Origin: a virus
Taxonomy: Duplodnaviria; Heunggongvirae; Uroviricota; Caudoviricetes
Length of the DNA: 64,000 nt
Strand: one strand, 5' to 3'
IMG/VR virus record: IMGVR_UViG_2537561978_000005
The notes below the pieces were generated by a model. It saw only the letters and a program-made list of their open reading frames with translations. It did no database searches and was not told the origin of the DNA. A program made the position numbers and the translations under genes. Each line of letters starts with the position of its first letter. The first letter of the stretch is position 1. Below, one piece after another: positions 1 to 15,500 of this stretch.

Positions 1-385
1 ACCCCATCGCCTCGCGAAGGACCTGCAAATAGAAAAACGGGAAGAATCCAGGGTGGTTGTCAACGATTTGGTCATAGTTATTGATTGCATGACCAGACCC
101 AATGTCAAAATTACCTGCGTAATGAGAAAAACTTGTACCATCCTGCCGTGAAAGCAGATCGCGCCCTGTATCCACTTTTCGCCCGTCGTCCCATCCACGG
201 ATAAACTCACCGCGTAAATCGGGAAGACGGAGGGTCGGGTAGACTCTGGCCAGAACAGGATATTGTTCTTTTGTAAAGGTGCGCCCGTCGCACTTTAACC
301 AGCCTGCTGGCGGTGTGGCAGTGGGCCACGGAACAGGTACACCAACGGGCAGCGCCGAGCCTTCCCCCAAACCAACGTTTATCTC
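1..385 (-). CDS. Tail-fibre variable C-terminal segment (alternative copy inside invertible segment); partial, continues past window start
   Basis: Minus-strand frame open from 385 down to 1 with no stop; translation ...GLGEGSALPVGVPVPWPTATPPAGWLKCDGRTFTKEQYPVLARVYPTLRLPDLRGEFIRGWDDGRKVDTGRDLLSRQDG... carries tail-collar motifs; frame begins inside the crossover site; absent from ORF track because it has no in-window ATG. Confidence 0.6.
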
Positions 386-387
386 TC
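362..387. other. Candidate inversion crossover site (cix/gix/hix-like) for the adjacent invertase
   Basis: TTCCCCCAAACC-AA-CGTTTATCTCTC; left half fits the TTnnCnnAAACC half-site pattern of Gin/Hin/Cin sites; 55 bp upstream of invertase start and at the point where the tail-fibre frame opens. Confidence 0.45.
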
Positions 388-441
388 AAATCCTCCCCAC
401 ATTATCTCAGTACTTTAACCACTCAAAAGGGAGTATTTTTA

Positions 442-1014
442 ATGCTGATTGGCTACATACGTGTGTCAACAAATGACCAAAACACAGATTTGCAACGCAA
501 TGCATTAATGTGCGCAGGATGTGAACAGATTTTTGAGGACAAAATGAGCGGAACCAAGTCGGAACGACCAGGCCTGAAACGCGCTTTAAAGTGCCTTAAA
601 AGAGGGGATACATTGGTGGTCTGGAAGCTGGATCGGTTGGGTAGAAGAATGAAACACCTCATTGCTCTCACAGAAGAGTTACGCGCAAAAGGTGTCAATT
701 TTCGCAGTCTGACGGATTCAATCGATACCAGCACTCCGATGGGAAGGTTCTTTTTTCATATGATGGGTGCACTGGCAGAAATGGAGCGTGAACTGATAGT
801 TGAGCGCACGCTGGCAGGACTGGCTGCTGCGCGAGCACAAGGAAGAGTTGGAGGACGTCGCCCGAAACTGACGAAGGAGCAGCATGAGCAGATCGCAAGA
901 TTGCTCCAGAAAGGGTATGACAGAAAGCGGCTGGCAATTATCTATGATATTGGACTGTCAACGATCTACCGCTATCACCCTGTTGGGACTGTCATAACGC
1001 AACCTGAAATGTAA
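442..1014 (+). CDS. cin: Serine recombinase, DNA invertase of the Cin/Gin/Hin/Pin family
   Basis: N-terminus MLIGYIRVSTNDQNTDLQ with catalytic Ser, VVWKLDRLGRR, DSIDTSTPMGRFFFHMMGALAEMERE and C-terminal HTH are near-canonical invertase motifs; RBS AAGGGAG 8 nt before ATG 442. Confidence 0.9.
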   Translation: MLIGYIRVSTNDQNTDLQRNALMCAGCEQIFEDKMSGTKSERPGLKRALKCLKRGDTLVVWKLDRLGRRMKHLIALTEELRAKGVNFRSLTDSIDTSTPMGRFFFHMMGALAEMERELIVERTLAGLAAARAQGRVGGRRPKLTKEQHEQIARLLQKGYDRKRLAIIYDIGLSTIYRYHPVGTVITQPEM

Positions 1015-1230
1015 TTCTTTTTCAAATAATGAAACGCCGCGTGGATGCCATTTATCGCACAAGATAGAGTGCATTTATCGCGCGGCGCATCATCATTTGT
1101 TGATATGCGAATGTATCCAATAAGCATATGTCTCCCTTGTATGCTAAGGATACGATCCTAGAAGATGTCCTGTAAGGAAATAACAAACTGACTAAGTTAG
1201 TGGCGCATTAGATGTTATTTCTGGAGGGGT

Positions 1231-1557
1231 ATGTTTGCAGATTATGAAAATCTGGCTGTAGTAGTCATAACATCCCTACTAAGTGGAACCGGCGTATTCC
1301 TTCTCGGAGTTAGAGACGGGCGCATTTCTGCGTCCCTGCTCAATCTTGCGAGTGAATTGTTTACTGCGGTAACAGCCGGGCTTGCGGGGTATGGGGTGGC
1401 GGTTAGCCAAGAATGGCCTGAAGGTATCATTTTCTGCGTTGTTCTGATTGCCAGTAACAACGGTAGTGAAATTTTACAGGGCTTGAAGTCCAGAGCTAGT
1501 TACGTCTTGAATCTCTTAAGCGTAATAGCGAATGGGGGAAAAGGTGGAGAGAAATAA
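1231..1557 (+). CDS. lydA: Holin-like small membrane protein (LydA-like)
   Basis: 108 aa, three hydrophobic segments plus charged C-terminus; position directly after cin and before a dar-like operon as in P1; assignment by synteny and size only. Confidence 0.5.
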   Translation: MFADYENLAVVVITSLLSGTGVFLLGVRDGRISASLLNLASELFTAVTAGLAGYGVAVSQEWPEGIIFCVVLIASNNGSEILQGLKSRASYVLNLLSVIANGGKGGEK

Positions 1558-2003
1558 TGGGTAACTTTGGAAATTATTTCATTTTTATCATGGCATTTGT
1601 TGCCATCATTGACCGTTTCATTTTTCGTCGCAAGAGTGTTGAGATTTTGAGTATTGGTGACGCTGTAGTGAAAGAATCCGCTATAGCATTTCCTGTTTCG
1701 CTACGTGTTAAGCGAAGCTGGGTCAGCAATGCTCAAATCGAATATTGGTTGCAAGACCTGAAAAATCCATCTGTGGTTATTTCAGGGAAAACGCGACCAG
1801 TTGACGCCTCAAAACGCGGTGAGAGAGAAGAGTATTTGCTCATCGATACGAAATATCTTGAGCCAACGAAGTGGGATCTGAAAGTCACATTGACTAACGG
1901 TAACTGCCGACTGAATCCGCTTTATCGCATTTTCCCTATCAATGACTGCATAGAGCGCCAGTTTACGATCGAAAAGCGTAAAGGAGACTGGGATGTCAAA
2001 TAA
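1557..2003 (+). CDS. lydB: LydB-like protein with N-terminal signal-anchor
   Basis: 148 aa; start overlaps lydA stop (TAATG); hydrophobic N-terminus; synteny-based. Confidence 0.4.
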   Translation: MGNFGNYFIFIMAFVAIIDRFIFRRKSVEILSIGDAVVKESAIAFPVSLRVKRSWVSNAQIEYWLQDLKNPSVVISGKTRPVDASKRGEREEYLLIDTKYLEPTKWDLKVTLTNGNCRLNPLYRIFPINDCIERQFTIEKRKGDWDVK

Positions 2004-2613
2004 GAATAATTATGTTCTTCTTAATTATGATGAGTTAAACGAAAAGGGGCTGGCAAAACTCGTCAAAGAAATCAGCAAAGGTGGTTACAAGATAGCGAGG
2101 GTGATCCCTGCAAGTAATGGCAGGAAGAAAGATGGGATCATGACGCGCACGTTTACCCTTATTGGTATTGATGAACAGACAATGGAAGTTCAGGTTAACG
2201 ATACCGGTGATATATCTGGGATCAAACTGAATGGTAAAACAGTACCGTTCAAGCCAGTAAAAACAATGTCGGCTTTGGGGCAATCTCTTGCGGCTTTATT
2301 TAATCGCGGAGCAACTTCTTTCCAGAAGTCATTAGCTCGAAAACTTGCTCGTGCAGCAAAAAATATTGATGACGGAAATAAGAAGCGGCAGGGAGTTAAA
2401 TCTAACGCTCAGAAATTAGCTGAAGCGAAAGAATCACGTGATGCACTCCGTGAAGATATCGCTAATGCTAACGACAAACTGTCTAAACTCCAGAGCAAGT
2501 CAGACAAAGTAATGCAAGATACGGGTAACGTTAAAGCTGCCTTGTCTCAGGAAGTAGCTAAGACACGTGCTCTTAAAGAAGAAATCGCGCGCCTGGAGGA
2601 TGAGCATGATTAA
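1993..2613 (+). CDS. Hdf-like coiled-coil protein of the dar operon
   Basis: 206 aa, Lys/Ala-rich coiled-coil C-terminus; AGGAG RBS 7 nt upstream; size and position match P1 hdf (recollection). Confidence 0.35.
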   Translation: MSNKNNYVLLNYDELNEKGLAKLVKEISKGGYKIARVIPASNGRKKDGIMTRTFTLIGIDEQTMEVQVNDTGDISGIKLNGKTVPFKPVKTMSALGQSLAALFNRGATSFQKSLARKLARAAKNIDDGNKKRQGVKSNAQKLAEAKESRDALREDIANANDKLSKLQSKSDKVMQDTGNVKAALSQEVAKTRALKEEIARLEDEHD

Positions 2614-4531
2614 CAATCCTTTACGAATTAATATTCAGTCTACTTTTGCTGATACGATCCCCGGCTATGTGCCAAGTCGCTGGTCTTCAGAAGAATTAAG
2701 CGAAGATGACCTGATTTTTGAGGCGGCGACCTTAGAAGATATTGAGCTTGCCTATATGGGCAATGAAATTCTGGTTGTGTCTGACGAAGCTATGTTTGAG
2801 TCCATAACTACAACCAGAATTCGGTTAGCTCAAACAATGCGAGCTTTCGTCCGTGCGCTGAATCGTGGCCTGAATGGTACGAATATTATGGCAGGGACTG
2901 ATGAAGCCGGGACCGATGAAAATGGACGTAATTGTATTGGTGGTGCGATTATCGGTCGTGTACGTCGGGTAGCTAATATCCCTGTTTTGACCGCGCAGAT
3001 ACCGCTTACTGACGGGCAGAGTACAAGCATAATTTTCCACTCTCCAACAGCTGACGGGGCAAAAATAAAGAGTAACGACGAGCTTGTTGCATTTCAGTTT
3101 TTACTTAATAAGCGTAACGTAACTCACGTTGTCGCCCCGATTGGTGGGAGAGATGTTTCTTTAAGCCAGGTATGCCAGGCGCTATCTAATTTGATTGAGC
3201 GTAACAGCGAAAAATTTAAGAAAGCAAAAGAGCGCCAGGACAAAATGAAGGCAGATATTGAGAGTTATCTCAATGAAGCAGATAAACTGGCAGAAGAACG
3301 GTCAATAATGATTGATCAGGTGGACGTTGCGCAACGTGGGCTGACTGAAAAGCGTGCTGCTCTTACGGAGATGCAAAAAAAACTTGATGCCCAGAAAGCC
3401 ATCAACGAGGAATTACAAGAAAAACGCGATAAATTGTTGTCTGCTAAAGGTGAAAAAACGAAGGAACGAGCGTTTAGTGACCAGCTGCGACATGTAAAAC
3501 ATAATCTTGCCATTGACGGAAAAACAGTGCTGGATAATGGCGCTGAAGTTAATTATATCACGTCCGGCAGTGACAATTTCGTTACGATAGTAGCACCTGA
3601 AGGTAAATTCAGTATTGATGCCAGTGCTGTCAAAGGAGGCAGTTTGGCAGATGCTGCAACCAAATTACTTAAAGCCTACCGAGAGCATAACGCAGATAAA
3701 TATAAAGTTGATGTGTTACCAGGCCAGCAGGAAGACCCCGAACCACCACAGACAGACCCCGAGACGAACCCAGTATCACAACCAGAGAGCCAGGATGTAG
3801 GTAAATACCACTATGCACTTCAATCTCGCCCGGCTGGTGTTGGTGCTGTGCCGGATGGAAATAAAGCCGTGCTTGATCGTCCTGACCAGGCTGATCAGTA
3901 TTACGAATATGCTCGTCACGGTATCATTACGTATGACCGTAAACTGACAGATGAAGAAGTCAGCCAGTACGAGTTGCTCTATCTTCCTGATGAAGATGAG
4001 CTGAAAGATTTTGCAGGCCAATTGGTTGTGTCCAGCATGTCGAAACATATTGATGGCTATGTAGACCTGTTTGGCAGTGACCTGAAAACATTCAAGGCGC
4101 AAGTGAAAATTCTTTTCCGCAAAGCGTTTCCAAACGTGGCGTATCCACTTGGTGATGGGGAGAACCTTTTCATTATGGACGTGTATAACGCCCTTCAAAA
4201 TCATTCAAGCGAAGTAAAAACAGAGCATGTGGTTGAGCCGGAATCACAACCACAACCAGCACCAGAACAGGAGCCGGAGCCAGAAGAAGCTGGTGAATCA
4301 GCAAGTGAAGCTGATCAGGAGGCAGATAAAGCACTGGAGTACCTGAAATCCGTGCCGGAGCAGTTTACATCCCGCGATCTGACGGTCATCAGTGCTGAAC
4401 TTGATCATGTGCAGGAAGCAGCAAACGCTCTAATCAGCGCAGGTCGATACGACGAGAACGAAGCCACTGTTGGTGCAGCAGTTGACTACCTGATCAACAT
4501 TCTGGCTGAAATTCAGCAGGGAGGTGCTTAA
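2606..4531 (+). CDS. darA: DarA-like capsid-internal antirestriction protein
   Basis: 641 aa with acidic Pro/Glu-rich linkers; GGAGG 6 nt before ATG 2606 (track start 2567 is an upstream in-frame extension); size and operon position match P1 DarA. Confidence 0.5.
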   Translation: MINNPLRINIQSTFADTIPGYVPSRWSSEELSEDDLIFEAATLEDIELAYMGNEILVVSDEAMFESITTTRIRLAQTMRAFVRALNRGLNGTNIMAGTDEAGTDENGRNCIGGAIIGRVRRVANIPVLTAQIPLTDGQSTSIIFHSPTADGAKIKSNDELVAFQFLLNKRNVTHVVAPIGGRDVSLSQVCQALSNLIERNSEKFKKAKERQDKMKADIESYLNEADKLAEERSIMIDQVDVAQRGLTEKRAALTEMQKKLDAQKAINEELQEKRDKLLSAKGEKTKERAFSDQLRHVKHNLAIDGKTVLDNGAEVNYITSGSDNFVTIVAPEGKFSIDASAVKGGSLADAATKLLKAYREHNADKYKVDVLPGQQEDPEPPQTDPETNPVSQPESQDVGKYHYALQSRPAGVGAVPDGNKAVLDRPDQADQYYEYARHGIITYDRKLTDEEVSQYELLYLPDEDELKDFAGQLVVSSMSKHIDGYVDLFGSDLKTFKAQVKILFRKAFPNVAYPLGDGENLFIMDVYNALQNHSSEVKTEHVVEPESQPQPAPEQEPEPEEAGESASEADQEADKALEYLKSVPEQFTSRDLTVISAELDHVQEAANALISAGRYDENEATVGAAVDYLINILAEIQQGGA

Positions 4532-4899
4532 TGACCATCTCTGTTTTAGACCGCCTGAAATTAGGTAAAGAGCTATCAGATCTAATGCAGGCGCAGAAAA
4601 CGGCGCCAGTATTGCAACGCGTCACCATTGGTAAGCAGATTGTTGATGTGATGCTGAAATTGGGCTTGGGGACTGCCGCGCAACCGGCAGCGGAACCGCA
4701 ACAACAGACTGATCCTGTTGTAGATGAAGTTCCTAAGATAGTGACTGACTTCCTGGGCGGTGTGTTCACAAAGTCCACACAAATGGAATTTATTGATGCG
4801 CTGCGTGGGATCTCAAACTATGTTGGCGAGTTCCTTACGTTGGAACAGGCAAAAGAGCAGACCATAAGCTGGGTGAAAGCCAACGGTTATGCAGGGTAA
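4531..4899 (+). CDS. DdrA-like small protein
   Basis: 122 aa, start overlaps darA stop (TAATG); synteny. Confidence 0.35.
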   Translation: MTISVLDRLKLGKELSDLMQAQKTAPVLQRVTIGKQIVDVMLKLGLGTAAQPAAEPQQQTDPVVDEVPKIVTDFLGGVFTKSTQMEFIDALRGISNYVGEFLTLEQAKEQTISWVKANGYAG

Positions 4900-4904
4900 T
4901 CAAA

Positions 4905-4930
4905 GGGGCTGAAATGCCCCTTTCACTTTC
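4905..4930 (+). terminator. Rho-independent terminator-like hairpin
   Basis: GGGGC-tgaaat-GCCCC followed by TTTCACTTT. Confidence 0.45.
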
Positions 4931-4992
4931 CTGTAAGTCCATAAATCACACACTTTTTACACTTCCTGCTTTCTATGTAAGGGGAGTGTATT

Positions 4993-6378
4993 TTGAACAA
5001 ATCAGTTACTTCTGCGCTTTCCGAGGCCGCAGATATTAACAGCGTCATTGCTCTGGTTTCTTCATTAGAGAGGAAAGAAACACGCCTGGGGCGAAGTAGC
5101 TACGTAGTCACCAGCAAAGGTGCAGAGGTAAAGACGGCTTTTAAGGTCGTTGATGCCAGCAGTCTGATCATTTCGAACAACCTTGACGGTATGATTAACC
5201 CGGCCTTCCCGGAAGAACTCCAACCACGAGATCGTACCCGGCTATCCAGCAAACTCCAGGTTAACCGTATTGCCTCCAATTTACGCCCGGCACAATTAAC
5301 GGATTCCGGTATGAGCAGCCACGGAGCGCCGATAGTTGGTCCGGACAACGTTGTTGAATCCGGCAACGGAAGGAGTATGGGTATCTGGCGTGCCTATGAG
5401 CAAGGACAGGCGGATGAGTATCGCCAGTACCTGATCGACCATGCGAAAGAGTTTGGTCTGAATCCTGACGAAATTTCGCAAATGTCTATGCCCGTACTAG
5501 TGCGAGAAAGACTCACAGATGTAGACCGCGCTCAATTTGCCCGCGATTCAAACATTAGCGATCTGCAAGAGATGGCAGCAAGTGAAAAAGCGTATGCGGA
5601 TGCGCAATTTCTCACTGAGAGCGTCATGGCGCTATTTAATCCTTCAGATGATGGAAATCTGCTGGCGCGGTCCAATGATGCGTTTATTCGTGCGTTTTTG
5701 CGCGAAATTGGCGATACAGCGACGGCAGGCTTGCTTACTGCCGATGGGCGTCCCACGAAACAGCTTATCGATCGCATCCAGAATGCAATTTTTGCCAAAG
5801 CGTACAAGGATGAAAGGCTTGTTCGGCTAGTGTCGGAAGAGCCAGATCCGGAAATGCGTAATATCCTGACCGCATTAAATACGGCAGCCAGCGATTTTGC
5901 GCAAATGCAGTCGCTGTCTGGCGACGCTCACCATGACGCAGTAACAGGCTTAGTGGACGGTATAGAGCAGGTTAATGGCCTGGATAAACAGGCTATTGCA
6001 GCGCTACAGGAAGCAATTAACCTTGTTCGTGAAGCAAAAGATAACGGTCAGGCAGTAGAAGAGGTGATCGCACAGCGTGGATTGTTTGGAGATAGCACTC
6101 CGGAAGCAGAAGCGCTTGCTCTGTTTATTGTTGCCAACAACCGAAGCGCTAAGCGAATGGGGGCCGCTTTCAAGAAACTGGCGCAAAAAATTAACGATGA
6201 ACTTATTCACCAACAACAAGCGTTAGGCGATATGTTCGGCGGCGGAGATGTCGATCTGCGTAGCATTTTATCTGCCGTTTCTGATGAAATTGAGGGTGAA
6301 TTTGGCGAAGGGAAAGGTCTGAACTTTGCTATGTTTGAAAATTCTACAGTTCTAAATAATTGCAGTATGGAAAACTAA
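4993..6378 (+). CDS. DdrB-like protein, first of two ORFs covering the ddrB position
   Basis: 461 aa, TTG start with AAGGGGA RBS; followed after a 64-nt gap by a second ORF; together they occupy about 3.1 kb. Confidence 0.4.
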   Translation: MNKSVTSALSEAADINSVIALVSSLERKETRLGRSSYVVTSKGAEVKTAFKVVDASSLIISNNLDGMINPAFPEELQPRDRTRLSSKLQVNRIASNLRPAQLTDSGMSSHGAPIVGPDNVVESGNGRSMGIWRAYEQGQADEYRQYLIDHAKEFGLNPDEISQMSMPVLVRERLTDVDRAQFARDSNISDLQEMAASEKAYADAQFLTESVMALFNPSDDGNLLARSNDAFIRAFLREIGDTATAGLLTADGRPTKQLIDRIQNAIFAKAYKDERLVRLVSEEPDPEMRNILTALNTAASDFAQMQSLSGDAHHDAVTGLVDGIEQVNGLDKQAIAALQEAINLVREAKDNGQAVEEVIAQRGLFGDSTPEAEALALFIVANNRSAKRMGAAFKKLAQKINDELIHQQQALGDMFGGGDVDLRSILSAVSDEIEGEFGEGKGLNFAMFENSTVLNNCSMEN

Positions 6379-6442
6379 GCCAACCGCTGAAATCACATAC
6401 TGATTATGCTGCCGCAAAACTGGAAACAATTTGCGGTGATTC

Positions 6443-8125
6443 ATGGCAACGAAAGACAAAAACAAAGGCTTTCTGTCAGCATTGAAGAAAGCCTTCAACG
6501 GTGGTGATGTTACGCCCGCCGATCCGGTCGTTTTTACGAGCGGGCATAGTGTCGTTGCTCGTTCCGGCCTGTCTGCTTTACGTCCAGGTATACTGGGGAG
6601 CAACAGCGATGGCATGACGAGTGCAGCAGATTCAATTTCTTTATCCGCTGAACTGCCCGGCGAGCGCCTGCAAAAGTACAACATCCTGGAAACGATGGCT
6701 AAAAGCCCGACTATCTCGACGGCTTTAAACATTCACATTGCACATGCGCTTGCGCCTTCAAAAAAAACCGGACAAGCATTCATCCTTTCGCCAAAGGATG
6801 GTTCCGATGCTGAGGCAGTAAGTAGATGTGAAGAGTTAACCGCTGATTTGGGGGCGATGATTAATGACGGACTTCCTTCATGGGCCATGATTATGGCTAT
6901 CTTTGGGGTGTCTTATGTCCGACCTTATGCTGAACAGGGCAGGGGGATAACAGGCATTGAGTCCAGTTATTACACTCTGCCACACTTCGTCCAGGAGTTT
7001 TATCGTGGTAGCCAGCTGGTAGGTTTCAGTGGTGATTACATTCTGGATACGCATAGTTTGCGCAGAGTAATAACCGAACCGTGGAATCTGGTTTCCATGA
7101 AAAATCCCTATTGGACGCCACAGCATAAAGTTATTCCGGTTAGCTACGGCACAAAAGGGTACTCACTGTTAAGTGATCAGGCTGATAAGCCGTTAATGGA
7201 GACGCAGAATTACGGAACTTCATTCCTGGAATACAGCTATGAACCTTACCTTAATTTATGTGCTTCGCTCGCCGCGCTGAAATCAACGCGAAATAATGCA
7301 GCCAAAATTGACCGCCTGATTGCTCTTACGACGAACACACTGGACCCGGTTAATGCGGCGAACTATACGCGTGGCGTCAGCCAGGCATTGAAGCGTCATA
7401 GTGACCTGGTGGCGCAAAGGTCGATTAATGCCAACGCTATTCCGACTGTGCTTAACCATCTGATACCTGTTATGGGAGACGGGAAGAACGGCATCACCAT
7501 TGATACGCAATCCATACCCGCAGATATCAGTGGTATCGAAGACGTTATGTTTCACCTCCGGCAGCTTGCTGCAAGCCTCGGCATTGACGCAACAATGCTT
7601 GGCTGGGCTGATCAGATGAGCGGAGGGCTTGGAGAAGGCGGCTGGCAGCAAACTGCTATCCAGGCTGCATTGCGTGCGAACTGGATCAGACAGGCCGCCC
7701 AGCGAACTATTTATCGGCTTCTGGACATTCACCTCGCTTATAAATACGGCAAGGTTTACACCGAAACAAACCGCCCTTATGACGTGCAATTCAACTCAAT
7801 GAACACTGCTATCCAGGAAGAGGAAAACCGAGAACTGGATGCACGCGCCAACTTTGTTGCTGTCATCTCCCAAATTATGGACCAGATCCAGAACAACCCG
7901 AAACTGGCTGGTAGCGACGCGTTTATGCGTTATCTGTTCACTGAGCAGTTGCACATCGACGATGACACTCTCAACACCATGATCAAAGAGTTTAAGGCGA
8001 ATGAATCAGAGCAAAACAACGAGCATGGTATGTACGAATCCGCGCCGTTGTCGTCCGGTGACGATCCGGAAAACTGGACGCCAGAACAGTTAATAAACTT
8101 TGCAAAATTTGTGATGAGCAATTAA
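6443..8125 (+). CDS. DdrB-like protein, second ORF
   Basis: 560 aa; ATG 6443 preceded by weak GGTGA; separated from the upstream ORF by a stop and a CCGCAAA...TTTGCGG stem-loop. Confidence 0.4.
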   Translation: MATKDKNKGFLSALKKAFNGGDVTPADPVVFTSGHSVVARSGLSALRPGILGSNSDGMTSAADSISLSAELPGERLQKYNILETMAKSPTISTALNIHIAHALAPSKKTGQAFILSPKDGSDAEAVSRCEELTADLGAMINDGLPSWAMIMAIFGVSYVRPYAEQGRGITGIESSYYTLPHFVQEFYRGSQLVGFSGDYILDTHSLRRVITEPWNLVSMKNPYWTPQHKVIPVSYGTKGYSLLSDQADKPLMETQNYGTSFLEYSYEPYLNLCASLAALKSTRNNAAKIDRLIALTTNTLDPVNAANYTRGVSQALKRHSDLVAQRSINANAIPTVLNHLIPVMGDGKNGITIDTQSIPADISGIEDVMFHLRQLAASLGIDATMLGWADQMSGGLGEGGWQQTAIQAALRANWIRQAAQRTIYRLLDIHLAYKYGKVYTETNRPYDVQFNSMNTAIQEEENRELDARANFVAVISQIMDQIQNNPKLAGSDAFMRYLFTEQLHIDDDTLNTMIKEFKANESEQNNEHGMYESAPLSSGDDPENWTPEQLINFAKFVMSN

Positions 8126-10938: not shown

Positions 10939-11645
10939 TGGGTATCTGCATTCTCGAAAAACTATCAATGACCAGCATTGAGATTGCGGAGCTGGTGGGA
11001 AGCCAACACTCTGACGTTAAACGTAGTATTGAGCGTATGGTTGCTCGAAGCATTATCCGAAAACCGCCAATGGCTGTTTTCGAAAAAATCAATAACTTAG
11101 GATTGCGTCGTGGCGTTGAGGCTTACGTCTTCGAAGGCGAGCAAGGCAAACGAGACAGCATCATTGTCGTCGCGCAGCTCTCTCCCGAATTCACCGCCCG
11201 GCTGGTGGACCGCTGGCGCGAACTGGAAGAACAAGTACGCCAGCCGTTGACCGAAATAGAGATGATCGCTGCAATGGCTGCGAATGCAGTTCAGCAGCAA
11301 AAGCTGATTCATGCTGTTGAGTCAAAGGTTAGCCAGGTCGCTGAAACCGTCGAGCAAATAAAGAAAGGCAATATTCCGGAAGGCTACATTGGCTACCGCC
11401 AGTTGGCGGCGAAATGCGGCCTGACTGAAGCCAAATGCCGAAACCTTGTCAACGCTTACCGGATTCCCACCGATACACATGAGTTTTTGACTCCAGAGGG
11501 GGTATTGTCGCGTCGTTCCATCGTGGCCTTATCTCCCTTCATGAATGCTTTTAACCGGATGATGTCGGAGGCTGAACACCGAGGAAAACGCTGGTATCAC
11601 CCCAAAATGGGGCAATTCCAGGTGATCGGTTGGGGAGGTGAGTGA
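10938..11645 (+). CDS. Rha-family antirepressor (Ant-like), N-terminal 235 aa ending at a premature stop
   Basis: MTSIEIAELVGSQHSDVKRSIERM is the phage pRha N-terminal motif; start overlaps icd stop (TGATG); paralogue 49677..50618 is 313 aa and continuous. Confidence 0.6.
   Translation: MGICILEKLSMTSIEIAELVGSQHSDVKRSIERMVARSIIRKPPMAVFEKINNLGLRRGVEAYVFEGEQGKRDSIIVVAQLSPEFTARLVDRWRELEEQVRQPLTEIEMIAAMAANAVQQQKLIHAVESKVSQVAETVEQIKKGNIPEGYIGYRQLAAKCGLTEAKCRNLVNAYRIPTDTHEFLTPEGVLSRRSIVALSPFMNAFNRMMSEAEHRGKRWYHPKMGQFQVIGWGGE
11133..11237. repeat. About 105-bp patch about 95% identical to 49873..49977
   Basis: Direct nucleotide comparison of the two ant paralogues. Confidence 0.8.
11341..11496. repeat. 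About 156-bp patch about 95% identical to 50101..50256
   Basis: Direct nucleotide comparison; flanking sequence is much more diverged. Confidence 0.8.
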
Positions 11646-11841
11646 TGGACATCATGCAGGCGGTAAAAAAATCAGGGAAGGACAGGCTGAAGTGTGCCGC
11701 CGTAAAGCATGGAGTGTTGGTGTATGGGCCTGGCCTGATAATTACTCTACTACCGGATGGTTTTGTATTAATGGACTCCAGATCCGGGAAGTTGATTTAT
11801 CGACGGCTGATATAGTCGGTAATGATTGGATCGTGACTTGA
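11638..11841 (+). CDS. Ant C-terminal fragment in +1 frame (homologous to C-terminus of 49677..50618)
   Basis: EVCRRKAWSVGVWAWPDN and VDLSTADIVGNDWIVT align with IVCRRASWPEGVWVWPEG and IDLAPEDVVATDWIVS of the intact paralogue; GTG start overlaps upstream stop. Confidence 0.5.
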   Translation: MSDGHHAGGKKIREGQAEVCRRKAWSVGVWAWPDNYSTTGWFCINGLQIREVDLSTADIVGNDWIVT

Positions 11842-11850
11842 AGCGTGATG

Positions 11851-11875
11851 CCCCGGCCTGGCCGGGGCTTTTTTC
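11851..11875 (+). terminator. Rho-independent terminator between convergent genes
   Basis: CCCCGGC-ctg-GCCGGGG followed by CTTTTTT. Confidence 0.6.
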
Positions 11876-12359
11876 ATGCCTCATTAGTTGAGGTTGCTGC
11901 GTCTCCGACTGGTAACAGGGCGGTATTGCGTGGTTCGCCAGCAGGCCAGCGATAGCCAGACACTCTTGATGTTGGGAATGCGCGAATATTAACCGCATCC
12001 CCCTGGTTCCCACCCAGGACAAGCAGATCGCCATTGGCGCGGCGTCCGACAACGAAGCCTACGTGCCCACCGCCTACGCGGGTAAATACAACGATACATC
12101 CGTATGCCGGTGTATCTAATTTCTCGCCCCAATCCAGATAGGATTTTGCCGACTCAAATCTTGTTGAGCGAATGCCTACACGTTCCAGCATTGCACCGAC
12201 AAATGCTGCGCACCACGGCGTTTCATCGTCTTTAATTCCGCCGCGCTTGATGTCGCGCCAGAACTGAACGATTTCAGGGTTGTGTTTAGCGCCTTTTATT
12301 TCAGTCAAGCCAATGTGCTTACGGGCTTCAATTAGCCAGCGAGGTTCAATGTTTGCCAT
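11874..12359 (-). CDS. Papain-like (CHAP/NlpC-P60-type) putative cell-wall hydrolase
   Basis: 161 aa with conserved Cys (ETPWCAAFV) and His (GGHVGFVVG) spaced as in CHAP amidases; RBS GGGAGA. Confidence 0.5.
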   Translation of the reverse strand: MANIEPRWLIEARKHIGLTEIKGAKHNPEIVQFWRDIKRGGIKDDETPWCAAFVGAMLERVGIRSTRFESAKSYLDWGEKLDTPAYGCIVVFTRVGGGHVGFVVGRRANGDLLVLGGNQGDAVNIRAFPTSRVSGYRWPAGEPRNTALLPVGDAATSTNEA

Positions 12360-12510: not shown

Positions 12511-15500
12511 TTGGACAAACTACTTCATTCAATCAGTGAAGCCTCCAGCTTAGGCGAACTGATTGAAATTGTTAGTCGGTTGCATAAATTACGTGCTGTT
12601 GCGACCTTTGGCGTCAGGAAAGCCGATGGCGTCAGTATTCAGAAAACACGCCGGGCAGCAAACAATGCCGCAGTAAATCTTCTTAATTCCCTTCCGCCCG
12701 GCTTCGATGGGGCGAAATTAACTGACGAACAACGTCAGATTCTTGCTGGGTATACCGGTGAAGGCGGCCTGACAGATGGTGAGGGCAGCCAATACGAATA
12801 CTACACGCCACAGTTTATGGCTGAAGGTATATGGGAGCTGTTTGCTGACTACGGTATTGATGGCGGTCACGTACTGGAACCATCAGCTGGCACGGGTATT
12901 TTCCAGGAGACAAAACGGCAGGGAATGATAATGACCAGCGCCGAGCTGTCTCCGATCTCCGGTCGAATCAACCAGCTGTTGCACCCGGAAGACGATGTGA
13001 ACATTGGGGCGTTTGAGGCTCTGGCGGCGAAAGACGCAATGTATGACCACGCTGTTGGTAACGTACCGTTTGGCGAAGGCCGTTCCGGCGTTGCAGGGCT
13101 TGATCCGGCATATGCAAACGAGAAGAACGTTGGCAATTACTTTGTGCTGCGCACGATCGACAAGGTTAAACCTGGTGGGCTTATCGTATTGGTGGTGCCG
13201 AATGGCATGACTGATGGTACGAAATACAAAAAATTGCGCGATAAAGTCAGCCGTAAAGCGGAATTTTTGGGCGCGCATCGTATGCCTTCCGGTACGTTCA
13301 GTGAATCAGGTACAGATACCGTGGTGGACGTATGGGTATTGCGTAAACACCCGGAAGCCTTCCTGGAGATGATCCCCGATACGGATGATTCGACGCTCAA
13401 ATCGGCAAACGTCCTTTGGGTTACCTTCCTCAAAGGGAAATGGTTTACAACCGAAGGGAAGCGATTTGTTTACGGCGACATGGAACGTACCAGCTTCCGC
13501 AATACCCTAGTGGTGAAAAAAGACGGTCGTGTATCCAATGAGTCGATGAAAACCGCGCTATCTCGTCGCTTTGATAGTCGCATCAATTGGGATTTGCTCG
13601 GCGTAACTACTCAGGCATGGCAGGGCGCGAAAGTGGGCGATAAACGCCTTGTAGGCGGTATCTGGCATGAGTTTGATGGTCTGAAATGGGTTCAGGACAC
13701 GACAACCAAATCCTCCGCGCTTGATGTAAGTCGATATGGTGTTTCGACGTTTGGCGATCTGCAGATCGCGTTCCAGTCAACAAACGGGATTCTGGCTTTG
13801 TCATGGGACCAGATATCGGCGATCGCGTCCGACTATCCATCGGTTGTCAGTGATGAAGTGGCAGCAATGATTCGCTTTGCTGGCAAGCAGCGAGAAAAAG
13901 ACAGGGAGCGCGTTATGCGCGGTGCACTGATAGGTCAGTTGATCAACAAGGCACTTGATTTGCGTAACCTGGGGGTGAACGTTGATGACAAACTGGCAGA
14001 TGCATCCCGCTTGGCGGCAGCAGAAGTTGCGAAGTATGGACCACCGCACGCGATTAAGCTGAATGGGCTTGCTGAAGCTGGCGCTAAAAACTGGATGACG
14101 TTCACTGGCAATGTGAAACAGGATGGTTCCACTTCTGACCTTCTGGCAGGGCGACTTGATGTAACGGATGGTGCTGCCGGTATTGACTTTACGCGTCCTG
14201 AACAAGTGATAGCACATCTTTTTAGTGATGTAGCCCTTAATCCTATAACGCTGGGCGACTTTCGTGAGGCGTTTGCTGGTGAACTGCCAGAGGACGACGA
14301 CGCGGTCCTTGAATACCTGGCGAAATTTGATGATATCGCTATTGATGGGTATGGCTGTCTGCTGCCGATGGACCGCGCCACCAGCGGCGATGTTGCAACC
14401 AAAACAGCACTGCTGGTGGGCTGGCGTGATGCGTCAACAGGTGAGCAGAAAGCGAACTTTGAGCGTCAGTTGGCGAAAATCGAAGAGAAACGCATTTTCA
14501 CGCCACTAAATAAAGTCACCGTTAATCTGAATGCCCGCTGGCTGGATCGCCGCTTGATAAAAGAGTTCCTGGCAGAGCAGGGCTATGACGAGTTTAAGTA
14601 CACTGAACCTGATCTGAAGGTCGTCGATGGCATTCTGGTATCTCCGGACGATTACGAAGGTAAGGACGGGGTATTTACCGGCTATCAGCTACGAACCGTA
14701 AACGGCAAAAACGGGAATGAGTTCAAGAAGGCCAACAATAAAGACGGCTTCCTGAACCAGTTAGAAAACTACCTGAACGGTGTTAAACCGCGTGGGCAGA
14801 ACGCTAACGAGTACCTGGATAAAATTGCTCAACTGGAAGTTAGCTTTAACGACTGGTTACGCACCCACCCGCAGGCGGATCAGATAGCCCGTGACTATAA
14901 CGACGCATTCAATGGTTTCATTCCGTTCACACATTCTGACGCACCGCTTGGCCTGGAAGGGATTAGTGGAAAGCGCATTCCTCTGACTTATCAGAATGAA
15001 GAAGTTCGGCGCTTGTCAGAAGATGGGCGTGGCATCATGGGATTTGGTACCGGGCTGGGTAAAACCACGACCGCGCTTGCGCTTGAGGCGTATAACTTCG
15101 AAACAGGTCGCACTAAACGCACGTGTATTGTTGTTCCGAAGGCGGTTTATCAGAACTGGTATCACGAGGCACAGAGTTTCTACAGTGCTGATGCCTTCGC
15201 CAATATGATGTTTATCGGTTTGGATGAAGTTCGTGATGACAGCGGAAATATTCTGACCGCGCCGGTGCTTGATGAAAATGGCGAACCACGCCTCGACAGT
15301 AACGGGCAGCCTCTTACCAGAAATGTTGTGAAAGAGTCCTCCAGCGCCGTTATCGTTCAGCGTATGAACATGATCCCGTCGTCAAATTGGCGAACGGTCA
15401 TCATGACAAAAGAACAATTCGCGTCTATCCCGCTACGAGAAAAAACCATCGAGGAGAACTCACAGCAAGCTGTCTTTAATGCTGTGGAAATGGGGCGTCT

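Follow-up and report, generated by a model that had tools for sequence, protein, structure and literature searches.

The first 1,014 nucleotides of the window (the whole 64,000-nt stretch of viral DNA that was analysed) hold a serine invertase and, back to back with it, a tail-fibre reading frame that runs out of the left edge. This raises the question of whether the two form one end of a working host-range switch or only its remains, and of how such a switch came to lie in this genome. Very probably, a D6-like plasmid prophage of the P1 family here carries a Gin-type invertible tail-fibre segment (of the G/C-segment type), and window 1-1014 is that end of it which lies next to the invertase.

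On its best matches, the window is a D6-like (P1-family) plasmid prophage. D6, itself a P1-family plasmid prophage, matches window 1093-3000 at 99% identity, a stretch that spans lydA and lydB (holin and antiholin), hdf and darA. The top overall match is plasmid pB2C_96 (NZ_CP035876), with 99.9% identity across window 1-3000, an interval that is covered to at least 80% by 28 PLSDB plasmids. Across window 1-5000 the sole differences from pB2C_96 are two 1-nt insertions in the window. No 100%-identical record was found in PLSDB or among complete RefSeq E. coli genomes, and an exact 38-mer across both private insertions had no match in IMG/VR, in GTDB representative genomes or in JGI metagenomes. 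The window itself holds one of three crossover sites, and the left flank was examined by proxy in pB2C_96, using a locus numbering (L001) in which window position 1 is L001 12001. D6-like plasmids are reported to vary most in the S/invertase region (PMC6799933), and P1-like plasmids with altered or reversed invertase genes are on record (PMC6906374).

The gene at 442..1014 (+ strand) encodes a serine DNA invertase of the Gin/Cin/Hin/Pin (Din) family, 190 aa long, identified through Pfam, Gin structures and D6 Cin. Its reading frame is intact, with the ATG at 442, the stop at 1012-1014 and 190 codons. Pfam Resolvase matches residues 3-135 (8e-51) and HTH_7 residues 138-180 (1.3e-12), the Mu Gin structures 4M6F and 3UJ3 match residues 1-181 (E 2e-93), and the C-terminal part matches the Hin DNA-binding domain 1HCR (1e-10). 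Ser9, in the motif YIRVSTNDQ, aligns with the same residue of Gin and is the predicted catalytic serine. At the level of sequence, the element passes as a member of the Din family. The RefSeq protein annotated at the matching position in pB2C_96, p95_MLI121 and JJ1886 is WP_000904922.1. The sequence-only reading that preceded this analysis had spoken of a Cin-family invertase. This stands in so far as the protein is a serine invertase with 73% identity to D6 Cin, but the arrangement is that of Gin in Mu, not that of Cin in P1, as transcription of the gene leads away from the invertible segment, like that of gin in Mu.

Between crossover site and gene lie a spacer and the invertase 5' leader (388..441, + strand), read directly from the sequence, with a Shine-Dalgarno motif GGGAG at 429-433 ahead of the ATG. 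The gene had rightly been placed close to the site, but its start is at 442, not 443, and the spacer measures 54 nt, not 55. A simple scan of 388..441 gave no sigma-70 consensus promoter for the invertase. Within its 5' part, the invertase gene contains a putative Fis-dependent recombinational enhancer (460..527, + strand), which was assigned from location and homology only: the stretch can be aligned, with no gaps, to nt 19-86 of P7 cin, where an enhancer is annotated. Because this region is coding sequence, its conservation does not constitute independent evidence, and a loose Fis-consensus scan performed no better than chance and returned nothing at 460-527.

The crossover site itself occupies 362..387 (26 bp; TTCCCCCAAACC-AA-CGTTTATCTCTC, central dinucleotide at 374-375) and forms the invertase-proximal edge of the invertible segment. 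It is unique in the 64 kb, where no chance matches are expected at up to 3 mismatches, and the degenerate core AAACSWWSGTTT was found once in the window, at this same site. The reverse complement of the site is the EC958 Phi2_3prime site, GAGAGATAAACGTTGGTTTGGGGGAA. It had been described as half-palindromic, and indeed only the half on the cassette side comes near the palindromic consensus.

Leftwards from the site, a minus-strand TGA (388-386) is followed by a fibre frame of 128 codons that meets no stop between 385 and the window edge, so that the earlier claim of a frame which opens inside the crossover site and runs off the left edge is borne out. Its product (EINVGLGEGSALPVGVPVPWP...) matches Pfam Collar (PF07484, 2.7e-16). 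From the open frame, the Collar domain and the relatives, we interpret 1..385 (- strand) as a partial tail-fibre C-terminal cassette, Sv1, whose last ~20 codons lie, by comparison with relatives, beyond the window edge. Sv1 has neither a start codon nor a promoter of its own and, since it abuts the invertase without a constant part, it is predicted to be a silent cassette that is not expressed. This agrees with the proposal that the currently silent alternative of the switch is displayed here, as does the finding of constant S and an inverted site in pB2C_96.

The gene order in pB2C_96 (L001) is R, then S (928 aa, + strand), a tail-fibre assembly gene (+), a 153-aa "phage tail protein" (-), a 142-aa "phage tail protein" (-) and the invertase (+). 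The left flank thus supplies a constant fibre gene S, one tail-fibre assembly gene and two more crossover sites. In reading direction, the S site (L001 10318-10343, + strand) is TCCTCAATTACC TT GGTTTAGGAGAA, the middle site, before Sv2 (L001 11921-11946, - strand), is GGCATAGAAACG TT GGTTTGGGGGAA, and the invertase-proximal site, before Sv1 (L001 12360-12385, equal to window 362-387, - strand), is GAGAGATAAACG TT GGTTTGGGGGAA. Repeat analysis and alignment show that each of the three is followed by a conserved arm of ~229 nt, with 85-93% mutual identity among the arms. All three cores read TT in reading direction, and the sites fit the consensus table of the EC958 report (PMC4134206). The crossover TT supplies positions 2-3 of a Leu/Val codon and every fusion is therefore in frame; the junction ...LNY-L/V-GLGEG... 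occurs in all three cassettes, and in relatives the constant part and the alternative C-termini are joined in frame. The leftward extension called for by the sequence-only reading, made here by proxy, accordingly revealed both the constant S part and an inverted crossover site.

The partner site, in opposite orientation, is found inside the S gene of near-identical plasmids, outside the window. An S gene that bears TCCTCAATTACCTTGGTTTAGGAGAA in the opposite direction would be expected no more than about 2 kb leftwards of the window, and the window's own replicon probably still carries the partner sites; its layout is compatible with either the pB2C_96 or the pF374-2 arrangement. Because two further sites exist in the left flank of pB2C_96, the switch is to all appearances three-way, not two-way. 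Use of the middle site is seen in the pB2C_96 and pF374-2 isomers and in the 464 records, described below, that have Sv2 beside the invertase.

The three tips (Sv0, Sv2 and Sv1) have their first ~77 residues and their last ~14 (RPRNIAFNYIVRAA) in common and differ in the middle, and S of pB2C_96 consists, according to Pfam, of Phage_fiber_2 repeats and a Collar domain. The minus-strand 153-aa and 142-aa genes were considered as U'-type genes and rejected, as both are Collar-domain fibre C-termini. Silent cassettes of this kind get called stand-alone "phage tail protein" genes by annotation pipelines. A single Caudo_TAP gene serves the three cassettes in pB2C_96 and JJ1886, and the U/U' pattern, with an assembly gene for each tip, is not present in these two; the sister modules of p95_MLI121 and pEc-050-T0_3 have two tail-fibre assembly genes. 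In some arrangements the tail-fibre assembly gene lies antisense to a fibre gene.

Evidence that the segment inverts comes from relatives that carry it in other arrangements. Plasmid pF374-2 is collinear with pB2C_96 save for one block and is its exact inversion isomer: L001 10330-11937 corresponds to pF374-2 6214-4607, inverted, at 96.3% identity, and the two ends of the block coincide with the cores of the S and middle sites. Likewise, L001 10330-12376, a 2-kb segment, corresponds to positions 15071-13025 of JJ1886 (a chromosomal prophage, ST131), inverted, at 99.0% identity. Plasmid pairs within the same accession series also differ by the inner inversion (MN101851 vs MN101855, OR257475 vs OR257471). 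When the predicted recombinant junctions were built in silico and searched in 5,426 complete E. coli genomes, Sv0 and tfa were found beside the invertase in 597 records (up to 99.8% identity over 1,271 nt), Sv2 beside the invertase in 464 (99.6% identity), and a fusion of the constant part to Sv1 (Sc::Sv1) in 170 records from 169 genomes.

Published data point the same way. In the EC958 study by Forde et al. 2014 (PMC4134206), the sites listed for Phi2 are exactly the two outer sites described here, and a 2067-bp invertible segment is reported in both orientations within one culture, from PacBio contigs. The relatives' isomers and these published identical sites indicate that the segment inverts in nature, and the isomers together with the EC958 Phi2 data mean that the switch is real and already documented. 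Both orientations, which the sequence-only reading had asked to see, are thus on record among relatives (pF374-2, JJ1886 and the complete genomes) and in EC958 culture (PMC4134206).

The same arrangements could in principle have been made by RecA-dependent homologous recombination between the ~229-bp inverted repeats, without the invertase, as the arms, at 85-93% identity, are long enough for it. We regard this as highly implausible, since the exchange points lie at the 26-bp cores, not along the arms. Between JJ1886 and pB2C_96 the outer half-sites (on the constant side and on the invertase side) stay in place, while the inner half-sites, GGTTTAGGAGAA and GGTTTGGGGGAA, move with their cassettes. 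Given this reciprocal swap of half-sites, the crossover can have taken place no more than about 8 nt from the central TT, and an exchange so near the central dinucleotide counts against homologous recombination along 229-nt arms. The inverted blocks, moreover, end 3-4 nt or less from the central dinucleotide. Site-specific switching is also the better fit to EC958, for which PMC4134206 reports roughly equal mixtures of orientations in one culture for Phi1 and contigs of the alternative allele for Phi2. Invertase-mediated inversion is therefore the reading that we retain.

A different doubt concerns the window edge. A 35-nt repeat that is common to all three cassettes lies 20-54 nt from the first nucleotide of the window; the two indels that alone separate the first 5 kb from pB2C_96 both fall in the outermost 42 nt; and the EC958 report (PMC4134206) describes spurious contigs from exactly such regions. 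The edge could thus be a contig break in a repeat of mixed orientation, and the layout a reflection of the assembler. We think this improbable, as complete closed plasmids and one chromosomal prophage record show the very same junction of Sv1, site and invertase; an artefact would, in any case, alter only the isomer displayed and not the identity of the element.

The two indels themselves are single A residues at + strand positions 31 and 42, which the window has in excess of three close relatives and which are absent from the ST131 prophage and pF374-2; apart from these, Sv1 is identical to the pB2C_96 cassette. As a result, the last ~25 codons within the window are out of the ancestral frame. 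If the flank is like that of pB2C_96, the frame would stop about 4 codons past the edge, and the tip, once flipped in, would lack the conserved C-terminal RPRNIAFNYIVRAA. The insertions may represent real decay of an unused cassette, or they may be sequencing errors near a contig end, since the window starts so close to the repeat common to the three cassettes. If real, they would make the Sv1 tip of this plasmid a pseudogene.

If they do represent decay, the locus could be a frozen relic, in which Sv1 is a decaying, never-used spare and the invertase-proximal site idles while any switching proceeds through the other two sites. Two private frameshifting insertions within an otherwise identical 5 kb would fit such a state, and so would the distribution among plasmids. 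In the D6-like plasmids with a readable arrangement among the PLSDB matches listed, Sv1 is always adjacent to the invertase; none of the plasmids among these matches has Sv0 or Sv2 directly beside the invertase, as Sv1 lies between in every full-length match, and no simple one-piece Sc::Sv1 occurs among them. The isomers among the listed matches differ by inversion between S site and middle site only, and evidence that the window's own site is used comes from chromosomal copies only. We nevertheless consider a relic unlikely. The very sequence of this site recombines in EC958 Phi2 (PMC4134206), as it does in hundreds of chromosomes; the invertase has an unbroken ORF, whose counterpart in RefSeq is WP_000904922.1, the protein annotated in JJ1886; the plasmid sample is small and partly clonal; and the insertions may, as stated, be contig-end errors. 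A functional three-way switch remains our preferred interpretation.

Such a switch would operate as follows. In the product of the late gene S, a shaft that stays constant forms the N-terminal part and a receptor-binding tip the C-terminal part, and only the tip cassette that is joined to the constant part at the crossover site would be translated. Three cassettes are available, Sv0 (followed by the one tail-fibre assembly gene), Sv2 and Sv1, each with its own site and a Collar region of ~77 residues. The invertase would bind the sites, cut at the central dinucleotide via Ser9, rotate the half-sites and religate them, probably aided by Fis bound to an enhancer in the 5' part of the invertase gene; this catalytic mechanism and the dependence on Fis are proposed by analogy with Gin and Hin. 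Whichever of the two oppositely oriented sites takes part, the DNA that separates it from the S site would flip and so exchange the tip, and we infer that host range would change with it.

How the switch reached a D6-like plasmid is indicated by an abrupt change of affiliation just behind the invertase. It is an ST131 chromosomal prophage, not D6, that window 1-1093 matches at 99.3% identity. The prophage of this donor type sits between aroA and ycaL and carries genes for an rve-type DDE transposase, an AAA ATPase, Mu Gam, Mor, Mu-type portal and head-morphogenesis proteins and a P2-like tail; from this gene set it is a Mu-like transposable phage, and the invertase is its last gene, like gin in Mu. 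On these matches, the module is an import from a Mu-like transposable prophage into a P1-like plasmid phage. A P2-like donor ("Entero_P88", the best match in the phage database) was considered and rejected, as the real P88 reaches only 74% over the invertase region; the DDE transposase, Mu Gam, Mor and Mu-type head genes likewise speak against it.

The right border of the import lies within the window. The right terminal region of the Mu-like prophage occupies 1015..1091 (+ strand), where homology to the ST131 prophage ends; it contains two CATTTATCGC repeats (1049-1058 and 1072-1081) and terminates in ...GCGCGGCGCATC at 1091. Megablast homology to D6 (99%) begins at 1093, and the boundary was set at 1091/1092 by inspection. 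Immediately beyond it, homology to D6 identifies 1092..1127 (- strand) as a remnant of the original P1/D6-type cin, its first 12 codons (MLIGYIRISTND), in an orientation opposite to that of the new invertase. In D6, cin lies on the opposite strand and reads toward the C segment, and cixL overlaps the 3' end of cin. Comparison of the aroA/ycaL insertion with an empty site (in UPEC 26-1) yielded a target duplication, ATTCT(TC), and the same right terminus, ...GCGCGGCGCATC. The left junction of the donor was placed by this comparison with the empty site; a search with the reverse-complemented right terminus, allowing up to 3 mismatches, gave no left end. Behind the same terminus, pEc-050-T0_3 has 73 nt of orphan sequence, with matches in sister plasmids only, and then a 307-nt cin remnant. 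The terminus is thus flanked by the plasmid cin remnant, by chromosomal aroA/ycaL DNA and by a third, unrelated sequence (in pEc-050-T0_3), and three different flanks at one terminus indicate a transposon-type end. The longer remnant, in a second lineage, indicates that the event at the cin locus may have recurred.

The left border precedes the S crossover site by ~170 nt. At that point, which falls in a fibre repeat of 75% identity, the match to the donor improves from ~76% to ~97-99% identity. The crossover site itself, which would imply an invertase-mediated exchange between replicons, was considered as the left border and rejected, since near-identity already begins ~170 nt upstream of it. 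Insertion into cin followed by recombination in the fibre gene would be the most economical history. In more specific form, the right end of a Mu-like phage would have entered the 5' end of cin by Mu-type transposition, and recombination in the fibre shaft would have deleted the intervening DNA and so grafted a three-tip Gin-type switch onto a P1-type fibre; to this scenario we give an even chance. No intermediate of such a history was found.

Inversion switches of tail fibres are textbook biology, and the finding of one more adds little in itself; the proposed swap of a module by way of transposition is the only aspect that is moderately novel. It provides an example, at nucleotide level, of module transfer between unrelated temperate phages, with the terminus of a transposable phage as one boundary. 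Phage-plasmids of the D6 type, frequent in clinical and livestock E. coli, can thus carry the three-tip switch of a widespread ST131 prophage, and as the switch is identical on both, plasmid phage and chromosomal prophage may share receptors and could exchange tips. Invertible regions of such type break assemblies, and caution is called for where they are met.

Among known systems, the closest is EC958 Phi2 (PMC4134206): the two outer 26-bp sites are identical, the cassettes are in both cases of the Collar type, and the segment is of similar length (2067 bp reported vs 2047 nt aligned here). In the JJ1886 prophage, the equivalent of EC958 Phi2, the module is 99% identical, and the RefSeq protein annotated as its invertase is the one found also in pB2C_96. 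Unlike Phi2, the module described here resides on a D6-like plasmid prophage, is fused to a P1-type S and lies beside a cin remnant; and while the text on Phi2 (PMC4134206) gives a two-site, mirror-image switch, in passages that do not mention a middle site, here a third, middle site is used in nature.

With the G segment and Gin of Mu, the locus shares an invertase that lies downstream of the segment and reads away from it, a crossover site upstream of the invertase gene, and a constant S part that is fused to alternative C-termini at a site; the donor is likewise a transposable phage with the invertase as last gene, next to the right end. It differs from Mu in having three cassettes and three sites, whereas Mu has two cassettes, each with U or U', in its Collar-type tips, and in a donor that has an rve-type DDE transposase and early genes that diverge from its late genes. 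The C segment of P1, P7 and D6 occupies the same place in the genome (from the S gene to lydA/lydB) and has the same role. In P1 and D6, however, cin reads toward the segment and its 3' end is overlapped by cixL, whereas here cin has been destroyed, with 12 codons left at 1092-1127, and replaced by an invertase of opposite orientation together with different cassettes. The Min system of p15B has six crossover sites and a more complex segment. Compared by description, it resembles the present locus in that several tail-fibre C-termini are shuffled by a single serine invertase acting on more than two sites, and it is set apart, again by description, from the three sites and three tips found here. 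With its three sites, the locus has the more than two functional sites that characterise multiple-inversion systems, and it is distinguished from the classic two-way switches by this third site and by the presence of only one tail-fibre assembly gene.

Directly beyond the invertase gene, window positions 1015-1091 are the end region of a transposable prophage of the Mu-like type; this stretch ends ...GCGCGGCGCATC and contains two CATTTATCGC repeats that lie 23 nt apart. This terminus is joined to three unrelated flanks, namely the aroA|ycaL site in the E. coli ST131 chromosome, codon 12 of cin in the window, and a 73-nt orphan sequence in plasmid pEc-050-T0_3. What follows it in the window is a 12-codon remnant (MLIGYIRISTND; 1092-1127, minus strand) of the plasmid's original P1/D6-type cin, oriented opposite to the new invertase. 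A mechanically called ORF of 50 aa (975-1127) is no gene but a chimera running from the cin remnant into foreign DNA. In pEc-050-T0_3 (L010, the locus of that plasmid, 5772-6158), which represents a second plasmid lineage, a ~93%-related module carries the same Mu-like terminus, followed by the 73-nt orphan and then by a 307-nt cin remnant. Because these 73 nt and the 307-nt remnant adjoin the terminus, the arrangement suggests that this module was either acquired independently or resolved differently.

Among the listed D6-like plasmid records in PLSDB with a readable arrangement, the silent tail-fibre cassette Sv1 adjoins the invertase throughout, and the only inversions seen there are between the site in the constant fibre gene S and the middle site; all arrangements are present among the chromosomal copies. 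Plasmid p95_MLI121 (L004, its locus, 2046-6654) encodes the same invertase protein (RefSeq WP_000904922.1), with 99.9% DNA identity rightward of the crossover site. The segment served by it is of a quite different, classical two-way type, in which the tip is gp53-like and tail-fibre assembly genes number two. With site and invertase held constant, the cassettes in front of them seem to be interchangeable.

Over the first 5 kb, the window differs from pB2C_96 solely by single-base insertions at 31 and 42, both of which lie inside the silent Sv1 and shift its frame; these could represent real decay or contig-end errors. In RefSeq the silent cassettes are annotated as genes in their own right, under the name “phage tail protein” (11468-11929 and 11940-12368 in L001, the pB2C_96 locus; 1-368 in the window), and the start assigned to Sv1 is, as read from the sequence, a TTG codon within the crossover site. 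Such stand-alone gene calls look like an annotation artefact, and Forde et al. 2014 (PMC4134206) also commented on artefacts of this type.

The constant part of S, which lies outside the window (L001 8711-10150), includes about five tandem 300-bp repeats with Phage_fiber_2 motifs. The sister plasmid pF374-2 has fewer of these repeats than pB2C_96, and fibre shaft length therefore differs among sister plasmids. Only one tail-fibre assembly gene accompanies the three alternative tips (L001 10847-11461; L006, in JJ1886, 13940-14554), and where the segment is arranged as in JJ1886 or pF374-2, this gene is antisense to the fibre gene that is expressed.

In JJ1886 (L007, 9863-12279 and 13811-23743), the lysis genes of the donor prophage are separated from the early region by an insertion of the IS66 family, ISEc23. 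Transcription of the prophage's early operon diverges from that of the late genes and proceeds toward the opposite end of the prophage. In this respect the donor differs from Mu. BcepMu has a similar layout.
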